A stretch of DNA of 64,000 nt from Escherichia phage KIT01. Position numbers and translations under genes: made by a program. Under the pieces are notes generated by a model. The model was not told the DNA's origin. It ran no database searches and saw only the letters and a list, made by a program, of their open reading frames with translations. The DNA lies in the sequence record AP019521.1; one strand, written 5' to 3'. Of the stretch, positions 27,234 through 35,591 are shown piece after piece (within the stretch, counting starts at the first letter, position 1; every line of letters starts with the position of its first letter).

Positions 27234-27524
27234 TTATTTACGGAACGAAATGAAACCTGCTGTGGTCATTAGTGGTTGCTTTTTAACAAAGACCGTGATA
27301 GAAATAGGAGCTTCAGATTCAAGCTGACCGGTTACTACACCATTAAAGATATTTTCAGTTTGTTCTGGATGAGAAAAATTCTCAACAGGTCGGATATCAA
27401 ACTGTTTGTCTTCACCGAAAACTCGACGTAATTCATTACCTACTGCACTGTCAAACTCTTCGGAAGCAGGGATAACGTTTTCAACCACCAGTTCTTGACC
27501 ATTAAAACGGAATGCAGATTTCAT
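27234..27524 (-). CDS. Hypothetical protein downstream of alt array
   Basis: 96-aa minus-strand ORF between the gene 54 terminator and the alt array. Confidence 0.45.
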   Translation of the reverse strand: MKSAFRFNGQELVVENVIPASEEFDSAVGNELRRVFGEDKQFDIRPVENFSHPEQTENIFNGVVTGQLESEAPISITVFVKKQPLMTTAGFISFRK

Positions 27525-27581: not shown

Positions 27582-29705
27582 CTACATTTTGAATTTATTT
27601 GATAAAGAAGAGATATCCAAAGACGCGGCAAGGATTTCCATAGCTTCGTTGCTTTCAGAAACGGATTCATTAACCAAGAATTGACTGAATCCATCCATCA
27701 GGCGAACTTCACCAGTTTCCATCAAATGGTCACCATCGTAAACAGATTCGCTGAGCTCTGAAGGAGGCGTTACGGTAGCTTCCATAAGGTATTTGTGAGA
27801 TACTCTATCATTCATGGCAAAAGCCGCTACTTTATCAACCTTCAACAATAATCCACGCGGAAGGATAATTTCTGCTTCTTCGGCATATTCTGTAAGGTCA
27901 CCAGGAGCGATAACTTTAACTGCTTCAGCACCTCGAATAACCATACCAATTTCAGCAATTCTATCCGCAGGACCTTCAGGTGCAATTGGATTACCGAACT
28001 CGTCTTCTTCCCATTCTACCTCTTCGTCATCGACTTCACCCACATCAGATGAACTACCACTAGCCAATTTAAACAACTCATCAGCAGAGGATAAAGAACC
28101 TTCACCACCAACAAAAACGGCTTGGTTGTCGAGGGCCATATAATTTTTACCAAATTCACCAAAGATGTTAGGCTTTAATGAGGCTGACACAAAGTTCTTA
28201 AAGTAAAATGTTTTGTTATCGATATTATGGCGCAGAATTTTGTATGGCAAATCCTGACCACGATACAAAATAGTACCCTTAGGAAGTTTAATACCCTTAG
28301 TAAATGCTGAGTCTAAATCCTTAATCAATTTAATAGCCGTTGTATTGTTTTCGGATTCAGGTTTACCTAAAAGGAATAAGTTCATAGGAGCATATTCAGC
28401 CGCGCAATATTCAATAATAGCATTGCTTTCGTCTTTGGTTAGGTCCTTAGGTTTAATGAGCTCGCCTGAATAAGCATATGCATCACTAATAGAATCGTTA
28501 ACCAGTTTATAAACGGCTTCCATAGCGAAAGCAATTCGAGATGCTTTCTCTGAAGGGGAACCCTTAAAACGGGTACTCAGGTTATTAACAATTTTCTTAA
28601 TAATATCCAGACTATTGGTTGTATTGATTTGCGAAAGGCCACTTAAAAGTCTATCGACTTCTGTATTAAAAAATGCCATATTATTAGAGTAAATTTCAAA
28701 CCCTTGTTTATCTCTATTAGCATAATTTAGTTTAAATTTACTATCAGTCATTAAAGCGTGTGTGAGAGCAATAGTGTATCTAAAGTTGGCAAGGTCCTCG
28801 CTCTTAGATTTAAACTGAGAAGCCTGGCGCATTTTAGTAATAGCACCTTTTTTAAAGTTCTGACTAATCTGTTCAATACCTTCGTTCTCAGGGCCTTCAG
28901 CCGTGTGAACCGGTACAGAAGCTTCAAACTCGTTATAAACCTGCAATTCTTTAGGGGACAAAGTTTCAGGCTCAGCAGTAGAATACTGCGCGGCCGCTGC
29001 CATACGACGCGAAATCTTAGTACGAGTAATAACAGCCTTATCAGTACGTTTCTCTTCAACTTGTGCAATAGATGCCGCTACGGCTTCGACCTTACTTACG
29101 GCCTGGCCAGTTTTCTTAGAAACATACACTTCGCCAACTTTAGACTCAACTTTAGTATAAAGATCGGCATTAATTTCAGGCATACCCTTGATATCTTCAA
29201 TATTAGCACCACGACGTACTAAAAGAACGTAGGTATGTTTTCCGCTGAATTGGAACATGTCGTCAACAACTTTAAACTTACCACCGGTACGAGCCATAGC
29301 CAAACGAGCTAATACGCGCTGGACGGTAGGACCTTTACCTTTCATTTTCTTAGTAGGGAAACGGAACAAAACCGCGTCCATTTTAAGTTTGTTTACTTGT
29401 TCGTATATGGTATCGAAAATGGTGTTCAGTGTACCGAGTGGATCGGTACCCAAACCACCCTTGAGTTCTGCCGGAGCGCCTTTAGCAGATAAACTCATTA
29501 AGATAACATGGACGTACTTATCACCATTTTTAACCATCTTAATAGCGTCGCCTTCAGACGCATAAGATACCATACGTGCTACTAAATTGTCATTACCAGG
29601 AGCATGTACCGCAAAAATCTGCGGTACGCCTGAGCCAGGTTTAAGATTTGTTACTGGGTAATTTTTTTTATCGCTTTTATCAAAAACTTCGTTTAAATTT
29701 TCCAT
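27582..29705 (-). CDS. alt: Alt-type ADP-ribosyltransferase, paralog A (most 3' in transcription order)
   Basis: 707 aa; N-terminal about 230 aa aligns with remembered T4 Alt; catalytic signatures R (LYRGQ), S-A-S (YFKNFVSASLKP), E-x-E (EAEIILPRG); conserved C-terminal DGDHLMETGE. Confidence 0.8.
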   Translation of the reverse strand: MENLNEVFDKSDKKNYPVTNLKPGSGVPQIFAVHAPGNDNLVARMVSYASEGDAIKMVKNGDKYVHVILMSLSAKGAPAELKGGLGTDPLGTLNTIFDTIYEQVNKLKMDAVLFRFPTKKMKGKGPTVQRVLARLAMARTGGKFKVVDDMFQFSGKHTYVLLVRRGANIEDIKGMPEINADLYTKVESKVGEVYVSKKTGQAVSKVEAVAASIAQVEEKRTDKAVITRTKISRRMAAAAQYSTAEPETLSPKELQVYNEFEASVPVHTAEGPENEGIEQISQNFKKGAITKMRQASQFKSKSEDLANFRYTIALTHALMTDSKFKLNYANRDKQGFEIYSNNMAFFNTEVDRLLSGLSQINTTNSLDIIKKIVNNLSTRFKGSPSEKASRIAFAMEAVYKLVNDSISDAYAYSGELIKPKDLTKDESNAIIEYCAAEYAPMNLFLLGKPESENNTTAIKLIKDLDSAFTKGIKLPKGTILYRGQDLPYKILRHNIDNKTFYFKNFVSASLKPNIFGEFGKNYMALDNQAVFVGGEGSLSSADELFKLASGSSSDVGEVDDEEVEWEEDEFGNPIAPEGPADRIAEIGMVIRGAEAVKVIAPGDLTEYAEEAEIILPRGLLLKVDKVAAFAMNDRVSHKYLMEATVTPPSELSESVYDGDHLMETGEVRLMDGFSQFLVNESVSESNEAMEILAASLDISSLSNKFKM

Positions 29706-29708
29706 TAT

Positions 29709-31754
29709 TTACCCTTGGGTGAATTTTTCTGGGGTTTCGTCAAAATTAATACATGAAGCTAAAATAGGCATTATATCCACCTTGGTCGATTTGACGAATG
29801 AATCAAAAGACACAGGGTTGTCGGTCTCTGTTTCTACGCCTTGGTAAACAACCAATTCGCCGGTTTCCATCAATGCATCACCATCATAGATAACCGCATT
29901 TTCTGCTAGTTGGTCTGTGGTCTGGATGTCAGCTTCCAATAATTTGGTGTTGTAGTTTCCTTTATATGAGGCATCTGTAATTTTAGTAATCTTAACAGTA
30001 GTTCCACGTGGAAGAATAACCTCTTGTTCTGTTGGAGAACCTGACAATTCACCGGGCACAATTACGTTAATAGAGTCTGCACCGGAAATTTTCCAACCGA
30101 TGTTCATCATTGTATTTTCGGAACTCGTCAGCATACTTGGAAGAACAATTTCATTATCGCCTTGGAAAGATGTCCCAGCACGATAGTCCTGATGAACTGC
30201 GGCCATTGCGACGTTTGATACCCAGCCGCCAAAGATAATCGGCTTAAGGGACGTTGATACATAGTTCCTGAAATAAAACAATTTTGAGTGTTTGATTTTA
30301 TCAAAAGTGTTAACATTTAAATATTGACCACGCCAAAGTGTAATATCAGGTGGCAATTTATGGCCAATTTCAAATGCCGCATCCATATCATTAATTACTT
30401 CAATTACACGATAACTATCAATAAATTCTGCATCCTCTTCATAATAATTACCCAACAAATAATTATTAACATCGGTATAATATTGGCCGCAATAAGAAGA
30501 AATAGCCTCACGCTGCTCATACTCAAATCGATTATCGCTATAACTGGCTGTAAAATGCATAACACTTTCTGACGCTTCATTAGCAAAGTCGCTAACAGCA
30601 GCACTTATACGTTGAGCATACTCTTGTTCCCAAAGCTCTGCCGCATATTCTGCCGCATCCATATTAGGAGGAGCCTCATTCATTTTTCTTTCGATAAATG
30701 CAGCTTTGCGAAGGTTAAGAACCTCTGCACATGATTCGGCAAAAATCTGCATCTGCTTCATACTGCCGACAGGAGCACGTTTAAGTTCACGATGCATACG
30801 GTTAAAAATTGGGTCGGAGTCTTCGACTCGAATTTCTTCTTTCCAAACACCGTTTGCTCGCATAGCCATATCTGCCGCGCGCATACGCTCCATAGTATTC
30901 GTTTCAGAAGGTTGAATAAAAATTTCTAGTTCTTCATAATCATCGATAAGTTCTGCTGTTGCTGGGGCGCTAAATTTTGATGCCTCTGCATCAATCTCAT
31001 CCCAACCTTCCGGAACTTCATCTCGAGGAGAATACTGGGCTGCGGCTACAGCACGCCTAGAAATCTTGGTAGTAGTAATAACAGCCTTATCCGTACGTTT
31101 TTCTTCGACTGCAGCTATACTAGCAGATAGTGCTTCTATTTTGGTTACTGATTGGCCTGTTTTCTTGGATACATAAACCTCACCAACTTTAGACTCAACC
31201 TTAGTGTAAAGGTCTGCATCAATTTCAGGCATACCTTTTATGTCCTCAATATTAGCTTGTTTACGAACCAGTAAAACGTATGTATGTTTGCCTGTAAATT
31301 GATACAAATCATCGACAACTTTAAACTTGCCGCCAGTACGAGCCATCGCCAAACGTGCCAATACACGTTGAACAGTAGGACCTTTACCTTTCATTTTCTT
31401 GGTAGGGAACCGGAAAAGAACTGCATCCATACGAAGAGCTTTAACTTGTTCGTATACAGTATCAAAAATGGTATTCAGCGTACCAAGTGGGTCAGAACCT
31501 AACCCGCCTTTCAACTCGGCTGGGGTACCCTTAGCAGACAAACTCATCAAAATAACATGAACATATTTATCGCCCGGCTTAACCATTTTAATAGCGTCTC
31601 CTTGAGACGCATAAGATACCATACGAGCAACCAGGTTATCGTTACCTGGTGCTTGGATAGAGAAAATCTGTGGAATACCGGAACCCGGTTTAAGATTTAC
31701 TACTGGATAGTTTTTAGCGGAATCACTATCAAAAACCTCGTTTAAATTTTCCAT
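29709..31754 (-). CDS. Alt-type ADP-ribosyltransferase, paralog B
   Basis: 681 aa; same N-terminal module; LWRGQ, YFRNYVSTSLKP, EQEVILPRG motifs; divergent central region. Confidence 0.8.
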   Translation of the reverse strand: MENLNEVFDSDSAKNYPVVNLKPGSGIPQIFSIQAPGNDNLVARMVSYASQGDAIKMVKPGDKYVHVILMSLSAKGTPAELKGGLGSDPLGTLNTIFDTVYEQVKALRMDAVLFRFPTKKMKGKGPTVQRVLARLAMARTGGKFKVVDDLYQFTGKHTYVLLVRKQANIEDIKGMPEIDADLYTKVESKVGEVYVSKKTGQSVTKIEALSASIAAVEEKRTDKAVITTTKISRRAVAAAQYSPRDEVPEGWDEIDAEASKFSAPATAELIDDYEELEIFIQPSETNTMERMRAADMAMRANGVWKEEIRVEDSDPIFNRMHRELKRAPVGSMKQMQIFAESCAEVLNLRKAAFIERKMNEAPPNMDAAEYAAELWEQEYAQRISAAVSDFANEASESVMHFTASYSDNRFEYEQREAISSYCGQYYTDVNNYLLGNYYEEDAEFIDSYRVIEVINDMDAAFEIGHKLPPDITLWRGQYLNVNTFDKIKHSKLFYFRNYVSTSLKPIIFGGWVSNVAMAAVHQDYRAGTSFQGDNEIVLPSMLTSSENTMMNIGWKISGADSINVIVPGELSGSPTEQEVILPRGTTVKITKITDASYKGNYNTKLLEADIQTTDQLAENAVIYDGDALMETGELVVYQGVETETDNPVSFDSFVKSTKVDIMPILASCINFDETPEKFTQG

Positions 31755-31757
31755 TAT

Positions 31758-33845
31758 TTACCCTTGGATGAATTTTTCTGGGATGTCATAGAGGTCTATG
31801 CATGAAGCCAAAAGAGACAGTACATCAAACCGTGTAGATTTAACAAATGAATCAAAAGATACGGGGCTTTCGGAAGTATCGAAATCATCTTGATATACGA
31901 CCAACTCACCGGTTTCCATTAGTACGTCACCATCATATACCACAGATTCTTGAAGCTCATCTGATGTCATAACTTCAGCTTGAATAAATTTATTGTTAGA
32001 CCCAGCCCCAGAACCAGTATTGGCTGATGCATCCACGATTTTATCTATTTTTACAAGTAGCCCGCGTGGTAAAATTATTTCCTTTTCGTTGGCATGCATG
32101 CTTAATTGGCCAGGATAAATCACGTTAACCTTATGAGCGCCACTAATAGCCCAGCCAACATCAACCCGGATTTGATCCGGTGCATACATATGTGTACGCA
32201 CTTGACTATCAGAGATGGTAACGCCTTCGTCATTATTATCAACGTTTAATTCTTTTCGAACATCATCGGAAGCAAGACCAATAGCCGCATTCTCTTTAAA
32301 GCCACCAAAAATGATTGGAGCCAATGAGGTTGAAACATAGTTTCTAAAATAGAATACCTTATTTTTAACTAATGCTTCGTAGATAGGCGCGCGCAAAGAT
32401 TGGGCTCTATAAACCATTATTCCTTCAGGTAAACGGTCACCATTTTTAAAGGCCGAATCCATTCCATCAATAGCACGTTTAACTTCGCTTTCGTCCAAAA
32501 CTTCATAAAAGCCTGGTTTATAACGGCCAAGAAGGACATTGTTGATATCAACATAAGCTGAAGAGGCGTATTCTCTGATAGCTCGTTTTTCTGCAAGTGT
32601 ATATTGTTTAGGGTCTCGAGATGTTGTTATATTAAGAATTTCTCTAGTTGATTCTATAGCGTATGTATACATTATCTTAGACAAGAATGAAGACTTACGT
32701 TGTTTCCATACTCTTTCACTGTTTTCATTCAATATCTCTTTTTCCAAATGGAAATTGTCTTTTCTATAATCTTCAAACCAATCACTTTTAATAGATTCTG
32801 CGATTTCATTAGCAGCTTCAACAAAGGCAGCTAAAGCTTTAACTGACGTGGTTTTTTCATTTTTAATTTTTTTGACAAATTTTTCTAAAGAAGAGTTAAT
32901 TTTATCACCGTAAGAAACTTCATCCGCAAATTTAAATGAATCATCCATAGTATTATAAATTTTAAAATCAATAGCCGTAGCCAGCTTATCCTTAGCTGTT
33001 TCGGATGATAATGATAATTCAACTTCGGCTGCTTGTGGAATTAATTCCGCCGTAGCAGGTGCACTGAACTCATTGGCAGTTTGTTCATATTTCTGAAACA
33101 ATTCACCTTCATTACGGTCTGCTTCTAATGACTGACTTGCTGCAATAGCACGACGGGAAATCTTAGTTTTGGTTATAACCATTTTATCAGTGCGACGTTC
33201 TTCAACTTTAGCAATACTGCCGGCAATAGCAGTTTCTTTAGTAACCTGCATGCCTTCTTTTTTAGAAATATAAACTTCACCGACATCAGAATCTACCTTA
33301 GTATATAATTCAGCATTAATTTCTGGTATACCCTTAATATCTTCAATGTTAGCTTGTTTACGAACTACCAGAATATAAGTATGTTTGCCGGTGAATTCAT
33401 ACATGGCTGGAACTACTTTAAATCGTCCACCAGTTTTCTGTGCTACTAAACGTTGAATAATACGTTGAACGATAGGACCTTGTCCTTTCATTTTCTTGGT
33501 AGGGAACCGGAACATCACGGCATCCATACGAAGAGCTTTAACTTGTTCGTAGACAACACTAAAGATAGTATTAATTGCATCGATAGGAGTAGGGCCAAGG
33601 CCACCCTTAAGTTCTGCTGGAGTACCTTTAGCTGATAAACTCATCAGAATAACGTGGGCATATTTATCACCTAATTTAACTTGTTTGATCGCGTCTCCTT
33701 GAGACGCATAAGATACCATACGAGCAACTAATTGGGACTCTGCATCGCCAATCTTCCAAATCTGGGGTACTTTAAGTTTAGGGTTCAAGTTTACTGTAGG
33801 CAGTGTGCCTTCGGACTCAAACACTTCATTTAATTGTTCGGTCAT
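31758..33845 (-). CDS. Alt-type ADP-ribosyltransferase, paralog C
   Basis: 695 aa; closest of the three to remembered T4 Alt (REYASSAYVDINNVLLG, VYRAQ, YFRNYVSTSLAP, EKEIILPRG). Confidence 0.8.
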   Translation of the reverse strand: MTEQLNEVFESEGTLPTVNLNPKLKVPQIWKIGDAESQLVARMVSYASQGDAIKQVKLGDKYAHVILMSLSAKGTPAELKGGLGPTPIDAINTIFSVVYEQVKALRMDAVMFRFPTKKMKGQGPIVQRIIQRLVAQKTGGRFKVVPAMYEFTGKHTYILVVRKQANIEDIKGIPEINAELYTKVDSDVGEVYISKKEGMQVTKETAIAGSIAKVEERRTDKMVITKTKISRRAIAASQSLEADRNEGELFQKYEQTANEFSAPATAELIPQAAEVELSLSSETAKDKLATAIDFKIYNTMDDSFKFADEVSYGDKINSSLEKFVKKIKNEKTTSVKALAAFVEAANEIAESIKSDWFEDYRKDNFHLEKEILNENSERVWKQRKSSFLSKIMYTYAIESTREILNITTSRDPKQYTLAEKRAIREYASSAYVDINNVLLGRYKPGFYEVLDESEVKRAIDGMDSAFKNGDRLPEGIMVYRAQSLRAPIYEALVKNKVFYFRNYVSTSLAPIIFGGFKENAAIGLASDDVRKELNVDNNDEGVTISDSQVRTHMYAPDQIRVDVGWAISGAHKVNVIYPGQLSMHANEKEIILPRGLLVKIDKIVDASANTGSGAGSNNKFIQAEVMTSDELQESVVYDGDVLMETGELVVYQDDFDTSESPVSFDSFVKSTRFDVLSLLASCIDLYDIPEKFIQG

Positions 33846-34067: not shown

Positions 34068-35591
34068 TTATAACCCAGTTTGAGACCAATCGCCAAATAC
34101 ATCTTCAAATGTATCAGCTTCTGTTTTATCGAAACGCCAACCTTTAATGATTGGAAGGAAAATACCTACAGTATCGGTACGTCCTTTAGAATGAACCCAA
34201 CCATTACATTCACAGTCGGCAATACGGCCAATCAATTTACCTTCACGAGCTTGTTTCATAAGAAGTTCACGGTCTAAATCAGGACGGTCTTCCAATGGAA
34301 TCAATACCTTTTTACCTGATTTATCTTTCTTATGGGTGGTATCTTTAAAGCCTGAACCACAGTCACTTGTAATTCTACGACAACGTGATACCAATTCAAC
34401 ACCACCAAGTTTGTTAGGGTCTTTCGAGTGTTCATAGTAACCTACTACTTCTAAAGCGATATCGATTACTTCTTTGAACTTGATAAGATTCTTAGAACGG
34501 CGGTTTTCCCAGTAGGAGTCCATGTTCTTAAGGATAATACCTTCCAGACCTTGGTCGACATATTTCTTATAAACGACTTTAGCTTCTTCAAGATTATTAA
34601 CCCACCGGTTTTCGATAGCTTCAACACGCGTTGTACCGTGCAATACGACATTATGAGCAACCATAAGTTCTAAGGCTGTAAAGCGTACATCGTACTTATC
34701 GCCTTTAATTTTACCTTCGGAATACACGACATCCAGTGGAACATAATCCCATGCCTGTAATACCATACCGGCAGCTTCAGTAGCGGAAATAGTTCCTTGG
34801 AGAGCTTTATTAGCCAGGCCATTTGACGTAGAACGATCGGCGACAGTTTGGAATTCCTTAGCCTTACTTAATTCAGGAAGTTCCTCATCAAACATACTAA
34901 ACAAATCATTAGATGCTTTAGGTTCTACTTTAGGAGTATGGTAAACTAATTCGCCATCAATCATAACACCATTAGGATGGCGTTGTCGAGCTTCTTCGGT
35001 CATGGCCATTAATTCAGCAGCTAAAAGATGAAGCCCTTGGTATTCATTACCACCACGAGTAAGGAATGTCACACCATCGTTACGAACTTCAGCAAAACAA
35101 CGGGCGCCATCAGCTTTTAATTGAGCAAACGCTGGCCATTTAATATTTTTCTTAATCAAATCTTCATCATAAGAGCTAGCTAACATTTGAGGTTGTTCAG
35201 GGATTAAACCTTTCCAAACCTTGTTAGCAATGGAAATCGATGCACCGCATTCAAGGTCGCGCATCATTACACGACGTAATACCTCGGCATCTTGAGCCTT
35301 AGCATCGGCAATGATTTGAGCCAGTTCTTCAATAGCTGCATTACCGGTAACCTTACGAGTGGCTAATGTGAATTCAGCGAAATCAAGAAGGTCTTCAAGA
35401 GTAATCATACCAAAGGATTGAGACGTAAATCCAGGTTCAGGCCACTTTTTAATACCGTAGTTCAGACGACGAGTATAAGCCATACGATATACGCGTTTCA
35501 GAAGCTCATTATCCTTTTCACGAGCAATAATAGCTTCTTTAGCTTTAGTAGAATCAATAGAAGCAATTTCGTTTAAAATATCTAAAATCAT
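34068..35591 (-). CDS. 30: ATP-dependent DNA ligase (gp30)
   Basis: 507 aa; adenylation motif KADG (FAQLKADGARC); position as T4 gene 30. Confidence 0.9.
   Translation of the reverse strand: MILDILNEIASIDSTKAKEAIIAREKDNELLKRVYRMAYTRRLNYGIKKWPEPGFTSQSFGMITLEDLLDFAEFTLATRKVTGNAAIEELAQIIADAKAQDAEVLRRVMMRDLECGASISIANKVWKGLIPEQPQMLASSYDEDLIKKNIKWPAFAQLKADGARCFAEVRNDGVTFLTRGGNEYQGLHLLAAELMAMTEEARQRHPNGVMIDGELVYHTPKVEPKASNDLFSMFDEELPELSKAKEFQTVADRSTSNGLANKALQGTISATEAAGMVLQAWDYVPLDVVYSEGKIKGDKYDVRFTALELMVAHNVVLHGTTRVEAIENRWVNNLEEAKVVYKKYVDQGLEGIILKNMDSYWENRRSKNLIKFKEVIDIALEVVGYYEHSKDPNKLGGVELVSRCRRITSDCGSGFKDTTHKKDKSGKKVLIPLEDRPDLDRELLMKQAREGKLIGRIADCECNGWVHSKGRTDTVGIFLPIIKGWRFDKTEADTFEDVFGDWSQTGL

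Follow-up and report, generated by a model that had tools for sequence, protein, structure and literature searches.

The 64,000-nucleotide stretch of Escherichia phage KIT01 (AP019521.1) analysed here (the window) derives from a Dhakavirus, a JS98/QL01-like T4-type coliphage, and carries three tandem alt genes, A, B and C, on the minus strand at 27,582-33,845. Alt proteins are packaged in the phage capsid and injected, and act as mono-ADP-ribosyltransferases specific for arginine; that of T4 is the classic example of an injected enzyme for host takeover. Two or three Alt paralogs are maintained in T4-type phages, with a common N-terminal domain that presumably serves in packaging. The question raised by this locus is whether paralog A acts differently from B and C, as its catalytic domain reads S-A-S in place of the S-T-S motif and carries an acidic stretch between this motif and the catalytic E-x-E motif. 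A sequence-only reading of the window had taken both features as signs of a distinct target or of different regulation, and had proposed an alignment with many Alt homologs as a check for common neutral variants. This alignment separated the two features: S-A-S is recurrent, whereas the acidic insert is lineage-specific, extreme within the family and conserved. Paralog A is an ordinary Alt family member in a lineage-specific variant, whose insert may tune which host proteins are modified.

A search with the catalytic domain of A alone returned 2 homologs, and a profile built from A, B, C and P0001 returned 179; in phage GenBank, Alt loci number roughly 1,750. A HMMER search of 1.84 billion representative proteins yielded 98 relatives, 86 of which cover both motifs and are referred to as the 86 representatives. 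Motifs were called from an alignment anchored on a hidden Markov model, and invariance of residues refers to a 122-sequence alignment. The S-A-S motif of A (YFKNFVSASLKP at residues 501-512, 28170-28205) and the YFRNYVSTSL of B and C were borne out by the translations of the open reading frames (ORFs) and by the alignment; S-T-S is also present in T4 Alt and in the closest outside relatives of A. Something other than plain S-T-S is carried by 21 of the 86 representatives (STS 65, SCS 10, SAS 4, STT 3, and SSS, SFS, SCT and SMT 1 each); the canonical middle Thr is lacking in A, and the position is not family-defining. Among 116 closer homologs, S-A-S was found in altb of phage JS10 and, separately, in P0178 (714 residues), the nearest relative of which (79% identity) has S-T-S. 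As the nearest neighbour of each S-A-S lineage is an S-T-S protein, at least six independent Thr-to-Ala changes are required, each corresponding to one A-to-G transition. Ala508 itself is old, as judged from its synonymous codon variation in 15 Dhakavirus alleles (GCC in 11, GCT in 4). In iota toxin, T339A retains about 20% activity and S338A 5%, and the Thr is said to stiffen the active site (PMC3000352, Table 3). S-A-S is best regarded as a tolerated recurrent substitution at what appears to be the least critical position of the motif, which at most would lower the catalytic rate. As a sign of a distinct mechanism it was rejected, since it recurs and is scattered over the phylogeny. Its status as a meaningful peculiarity was lost as well, given the 21 deviating representatives, the multiple origins and the residual activity of iota toxin T339A.

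All 45 invariant columns of the alignment are kept in A, including R482, S507, S509, E610 and E612, and R482 is also present in every family representative that covers that column. For the catalytic core of A, the ratio of nonsynonymous to synonymous differences per site (pN/pS) was 0.039 among nine Dhakavirus alleles. Arginine-specific enzymes typically have the motif in its E-x-E form. Paralog A is predicted to be a functional Alt-family enzyme that is packaged in the capsid and injected.

Downstream of S-A-S, the order of elements in A is LKPNIFG (the phosphate-nicotinamide or PN loop), the hypervariable segment, the strand IGMVIRG, PGDLTEYAE (the equivalent of the ADP-ribosylating turn-turn or ARTT loop) and E-x-E. 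Every Alt protein has a long segment between the PN and ARTT loops; these segments are mutually unalignable, and no other part of the catalytic domain has as many gaps or varies as much within the family (gap fraction and entropy were taken from 96 representatives, i.e. the 98 matches minus P0001 and P0002). The spacing from S-x-S to E-x-E is 100 residues in A, 73 in B, 79 in C, 68 in T4 Alt, and 79 and 77 in the first and second Alt of T2. In the 86 representatives, the loop measures 46-90 residues (mean 68, standard deviation 9.6) and contains 2-15 Asp and Glu (mean 8.2, standard deviation 2.8). With 100 residues (z = 3.4) and 23 Asp and Glu (z = 5.4), A is the family extreme in both loop length and acidity.

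The acidic Gly/Ser-rich stretch that had been described for A is indeed present and comprises 44 residues (539-582; 27960-28091), among them 15 Asp/Glu, 10 Gly/Ser and 2 Lys/Arg. That about 45 residues are lacking in B and C held only in part: A is longer by a net 21-27 residues, but B and C have 73 and 79 residues of their own in this place. Moreover, the start of the stretch is common to A (SSADELFKLA) and to S-T-S orthologs (SSAEEFFKIG in P0169) and is predicted to be helical. The part specific to Dhakavirus is a hyperacidic insertion of about 27 residues, which is absent from P0169 (64% identity to A, S-T-S, 79-residue loop with 16 Asp/Glu), from P0134 (59% identity, S-T-S, 86-residue loop with 17 Asp/Glu) and from the T2-type alt_2 or alt2 (54% identity, S-T-S, 77-residue loop with 12 Asp/Glu). 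With 11 Asp/Glu per 18 residues, DVGEVDDEEVEWEEDEFG is more acidic than any other 18-residue segment in the 47 ORFs of the window that reach 150 residues or more, the next best having 10. The Alt catalytic domains are all acidic (net charge -12 to -25), that of A being the most acidic. In the alt region no tandem repeat beyond a trivial 7-nucleotide array was detected, and no donor of the insert was found elsewhere in the window by blastn-short or tblastn. Searches for intermediate forms in IMG/VR and metagenome contigs, using peptide patterns including DDEEVEWE, returned only known Dhakavirus genomes and T2-type orthologs.

The length of the catalytic domain is constant (921 nucleotides) in 41 of 41 GenBank records at >=96% identity. 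Among 15 distinct altb alleles, the 27 codons of the insert comprise 10 synonymous-only variable and 0 amino-acid-variable codons, and the whole variable segment (64 codons) comprises 21 and 2, respectively. As the insert has 15.7 sites that are synonymous and 65.3 that are nonsynonymous, the neutral probability that 10 out of 10 events are synonymous is about 8e-8. The insert is under strict purifying selection. No Asp/Glu swaps were observed in the insert among the 15 alleles, which suggests that the constraint acts on the sequence itself, beyond net charge. The synonymous-only variation and its low neutral probability are evidence against a neutral spacer. We therefore consider it unlikely that the insert is a neutral expansion of a freely varying surface loop which, together with an equally neutral S-A-S, leaves the function unchanged. 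Such a view would be in line with the unalignable loops of 46-90 residues in the representatives, with the predicted disorder of the insert and with the recurrence of S-A-S and S-C-S, but a neutral acidic spacer should drift in its Asp/Glu composition or its length, and neither an amino-acid-variable codon in the alleles nor an indel in the 41 records was found. S-A-S taken by itself is best seen as neutral.

The insert was also analysed in structural models. For full-length A, an AlphaFold2 model based on 122 sequences had a mean predicted local distance difference test score (pLDDT) of 76, with a confident catalytic core. Residues 521-548 had a pLDDT of 57-66 (helix 521-525, strand 530-532, helix 541-548), and residues 551-580 were below 50, so that the insert is predicted to be disordered. 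In the model of paralog C, the equivalent segment forms a small helical subdomain (pLDDT 82-95) that is flexible only at the tip of the PN loop, FGGF. The sequence-only reading had called for a superposition of all three catalytic domains; the comparison made here covers the models of A and C, by per-residue confidence and secondary structure. The models depict the Alt 'loop' as a variable subdomain, to which A would add a disordered acidic excursion.

Foldseek analysis of the catalytic domain of A gave 72 PDB chains at E <= 0.001, with Vis, Certhrax, C3bot, VIP2, CDTa and iota toxin at the top (probability 1.00; target-normalised TM-score 0.55-0.67 for single-domain members). A sequence search with A found no solved Alt structure, and the profile reached only toxin ADP-ribosyltransferases. 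The profile matches to the toxin structures fall into two pieces flanking the loop, and the Pfam match to A breaks there too. C3bot, iota toxin Ia, VIP2, CDTa, Certhrax and Vis have the fold and the R-S-E site with PN and ARTT loops in common with A (PMC3000352). In iota toxin, S340 and E378 are about 37 residues apart (PMC3000352), whereas Alt proteins carry 30-60 more residues as a variable segment and, unlike the C3 and binary toxins, have large phage-specific N-terminal domains. The PN and ARTT loops of related toxins contact NAD/nicotinamide phosphate and the target protein, and insertions in these loops were proposed to change targeting (PMC3000352). The region flagged earlier (27880-28215, residues 497-609, ending two bases before the E-x-E codons) had been taken as one that shapes substrate access, and this is supported: the insert directly follows the PN loop and precedes the ARTT loop, within the most variable segment, and is conserved within Dhakavirus. 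Its strict conservation in this group fits a specificity element.

The reading that we favour, and to which we give an even chance, is that A is a functional Alt with a tolerated S-A-S motif and an acidic tether that would recruit targets next to the surface which binds NAD and the target. The loop of this ortholog group, acidic to begin with, would have gained about 27 hyperacidic, aromatic-containing residues in the Dhakavirus lineage; these residues would form a disordered tether by the PN loop and next to this surface. The tether would work as an electrostatic, nucleic-acid-like bait that brings to the active site those surfaces of host proteins that are rich in arginine and bind nucleic acids, and the target spectrum of A would differ from those of B and C as an outcome. 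A bait is proposed because the Alt domains are acidic, A being the most acidic, and because T4 Alt mainly targets an arginine that contacts DNA, Arg265 of the RNA polymerase alpha subunit (PMC2988021). Target recruitment by the insert is plausible. However, A is only 32-36% identical to B and C in the catalytic domain and 15-17% in the middle domain, so that a distinct target would be expected for it with or without S-A-S and the insert. The strongest divergence among the paralogs falls in one segment next to the active site, and one lineage has gained a strictly conserved hyperacidic insert there; the hypervariable segment is a natural place to seek the specificity determinants of Alt. The consequences are incremental: dozens of deposited genomes already carry the gene with its annotation, and the chemistry implied is not new.

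Several points weigh against the favoured reading. The disorder of the insert is a low-confidence prediction, and purifying selection says that the insert matters but is silent on its role. In altb of the Dhakavirus vB_EcoM_005 (MK295203.1, 5801-7825), an in-frame deletion of 99 nucleotides (equivalent to about 27783-27881 of the window) between short direct repeats (TATG...GAAGC) has removed 33 residues, EAEIILPRG...YLME, including E-x-E. The acidic loop and the rest of this ORF are intact, making it a natural knockout of the catalytic motif, found in one genome only. Catalysis by A is therefore dispensable for that isolate, and protein A may have a non-catalytic role. In addition, T4 has let this paralog decay to alt.-1/alt.-2 remnants, according to an annotation note. 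In a more specific form, which we regard as a rather long shot, EVDDEEVEWEEDEFGNPI would be a nucleic-acid-mimicking short linear motif docking a specific host protein rich in arginine onto the enzyme, for instance a nucleoid protein, a domain of a polymerase or a nuclease of a defence system. Paralog A would then be a dedicated, substrate-baiting counter-defence or takeover effector, and the vB_EcoM_005 allele without E-x-E hints that part of its function would persist when catalysis is lost.

With similarly low probability, the acidic loop might be regulatory or protective, either as an autoinhibitory lid on the basic NAD/target cleft or by keeping the protein from sticking to packaged DNA and thereby favouring ejection. 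The loop adjoins the PN loop and the active site and is highly negative and predicted to be disordered, and Alt proteins lie among the packaged DNA in the head (PMC9026906). However, packaging presumably proceeds alike in B, C, T4 Alt and T2 alt2, which lack the insert, no confident docking of the loop was seen in the AlphaFold2 model, and inhibition would be needless in a capsid that is without NAD.

A little less probable again is that A is catalytically weak or inactive and serves as a non-enzymatic acidic decoy or DNA mimic that binds a defence protein or a nucleic-acid-binding protein of the host. DNA-mimic tails typically have acidic stretches with aromatic residues, which would speak for a decoy, as would the roughly five-fold loss of activity caused by Thr-to-Ala in iota toxin and the natural allele that stays an intact ORF with an unchanged acidic loop although E-x-E is gone. 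On the other hand, every invariant catalytic residue is kept in A, the catalytic core is under purifying selection no weaker than that on the rest of the protein, and the E-x-E deletion occurs in a single genome, which measures 155 kb as compared to about 170 kb in relatives. It is very improbable that the insert brings a site for the prohead protease gp21 (I580-A-E582 followed by I583), at which the packaged enzyme would be nicked into two chains: RIAE/I fits the L/I-x-E pattern of gp21 sites (see PMC9026906) and sits at the end of the disordered segment, but a pattern of three residues often arises by chance, the orthologs do not conserve it, and here it borders a beta-strand of the core.

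Several comparisons show that A is an Alt protein. The gene shares 98% nucleotide identity with genes annotated as 'Alt-like RNA polymerase ADP-ribosyltransferase' in fDHCT2, QL01 and MX01, and 91% with 'altb' of the Dhakavirus JS98. The family phrog_802 ('Alt-like RNA polymerase ADP-ribosyltransferase') matches A at 2e-248 over residues 1-707, and B and C likewise gave full-length matches. In a Pfam scan, PF03496 was found in A, B and C, in A at 2.6e-17 and split into two stretches. PF26846, the N-terminal Alt domain, is precomputed for the 96%-identical P0123 and did not come up when A itself was scanned against Pfam; no NCBIfam model matched A, B or C. Paralog A consists of a conserved N-terminal Alt domain, a variable helical middle domain and a C-terminal R-S-ExE ADP-ribosyltransferase domain. 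The alt cluster is bordered by DNA ligase (gene 30, 34068-35591) on one side and by a 96-residue alt.-3 homolog (27234-27524), followed by the gp54/gp48/gp29 baseplate genes, on the other, and the slot of A (gene 30/alt.1 to alt.-3/gp54) agrees with the annotated JS98, T4 and T2 loci. By these matches, A is a bona fide Alt-family member, belonging to the ortholog group of JS98 'altb' and of the second Alt of T2-type phages.

T4 Alt (gpAlt, 682 residues) resembles A in its three-part architecture, its Pfam and PHROG families, the R/S-x-S/E-x-E residues, the motif VYDGDxLMETGE and the gene 30-gp54 slot. However, the catalytic domains are only about 35% identical, and T4 Alt has S-T-S and a 68-residue loop with 8 Asp/Glu, as compared to S-A-S, 100 residues and 23 in A. 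The sequence counterpart of T4 Alt is paralog C ('alta'), not A. The orthologs of A are 'alt_2' of T2-, RB- and AR1-type Tequatroviruses and 'altb' of JS98, IME08 and JS10, all of them located next to alt.-3. With its orthologs, A shares YFKNFVS-x-SLKPNIFGE-GKNYMALD plus the following acidic loop. The altb proteins of JS98, JS10 and IME08 are 96% identical to A and have S-A-S and the full insert. The duplication of alt in T4-like phages and the decay of the second copy in T4 were already known (PMC1524935), and literature searches for altb, the S-A-S variant or the acidic insert found no specific description. The coordinates of all features are given in Table 1.

Table 1. Features of the alt locus in the window (residue numbers refer to paralog A; invariance refers to the 122-sequence alignment)
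Feature	Coordinates	Strand	Evidence
Alt paralog A ('altb' of JS98-type phages), 707 residues	27582-29705	minus	ORF; PF03496; phrog_802; nucleotide identity
Alt paralog B, 681 residues, S-T-S, 73-residue loop	29709-31754	minus	ORF, alignment, phrog_802
Alt paralog C ('alta'), 695 residues, S-T-S, 79-residue loop	31758-33845	minus	ORF, alignment, phrog_802, AlphaFold2
YRGQ with catalytic Arg482 (region 1 of the R-S-E triad)	28254-28265	minus	R482 invariant
S507-A508-S509, variant of S-T-S	28179-28187	minus	S507 and S509 invariant; Thr at 508 'nearly invariant'
LKPNIFG, PN loop, right after the S-x-S motif	28158-28178	minus	P512, I514, F515 and G516 invariant
Hypervariable segment of the Alt family, residues 517-582, PN loop to strand IGMVI	27960-28157	minus	Gap fraction 0.3-0.84, high entropy
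Dhakavirus-specific hyperacidic insertion SGSSSDVGEVDDEEVEWEEDEFGNPIA, about residues 549-575, about 27 residues	27981-28061	minus	Missing from the closest S-T-S orthologs
PGDLTEYAE, ARTT-loop equivalent ahead of E-x-E	27879-27905	minus	P601 and G602 invariant; sequence unlike in A, B and C
EAEIILPRG (residues 610-618), strand with catalytic E610-x-E612	27852-27878	minus	E610, E612, L615, P616, R617 and G618 invariant
VYDGDHLMETGE, residues 655-666, family-invariant motif before the low-confidence tail	27708-27743	minus	Y656, D657, G658, D659, L661, E663 and G665 invariant

The number of alt genes varies within Dhakavirus. Two were found in JS98, EcWhh-1, NC-G and dhabil and three in the window phage and AnYang, and QL01, WG01 and MX01 gave three tblastn matches each, a count that is taken from the matches alone. 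Paralog B is present in only some Dhakavirus genomes, and the first alt slot of dhabil is occupied by a different 686-residue allele. The alt locus behaves as a variable effector cassette. Identities among A, B and C amount to 66-87% in the N-terminal 240 residues, 15-25% in the helical middle domain and 32-40% in the catalytic domain. Among Dhakavirus altb alleles, the synonymous divergence pS is about 0.36 in the N- and C-terminal parts as compared to about 0.17 in the middle and catalytic parts. This modularity and the uneven synonymous divergence hint at recombination or gene conversion among paralogs. In T4 (KJ477684.1, 6029-6232), the slot of A holds only alt.-1/alt.-2, which the annotation describes as what is left after an old duplication of the first part of alt. 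T2-type phages have retained a complete second copy. The loss of the A-type paralog in T4, the model phage studied best, is probably why it is uncharacterised.

VYDGDxLMETGE is invariant in 122 Alt homologs and recurs at the corresponding positions of B and C. In the models of A and C, a tail of about 40 residues with low confidence comes after it (residues 653-686 of A have a pLDDT below 50). T4 Alt is trimmed by gp21 at both ends (PMC9026906), and VYDGDxLMETGE, which contains L-x-E, is a candidate C-terminal processing site for this protease. At the other end, the N-terminus of A, MENLNE/V, fits the L-x-E pattern of gp21, as a hint from the sequence.

The alt.-3 homolog directly downstream of A is encoded on the minus strand as well and belongs to phrog_1739. 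In T4, mutations that extend the C-terminus of alt.-3 allow escape from the CmdTAC defence (PMC11618068).

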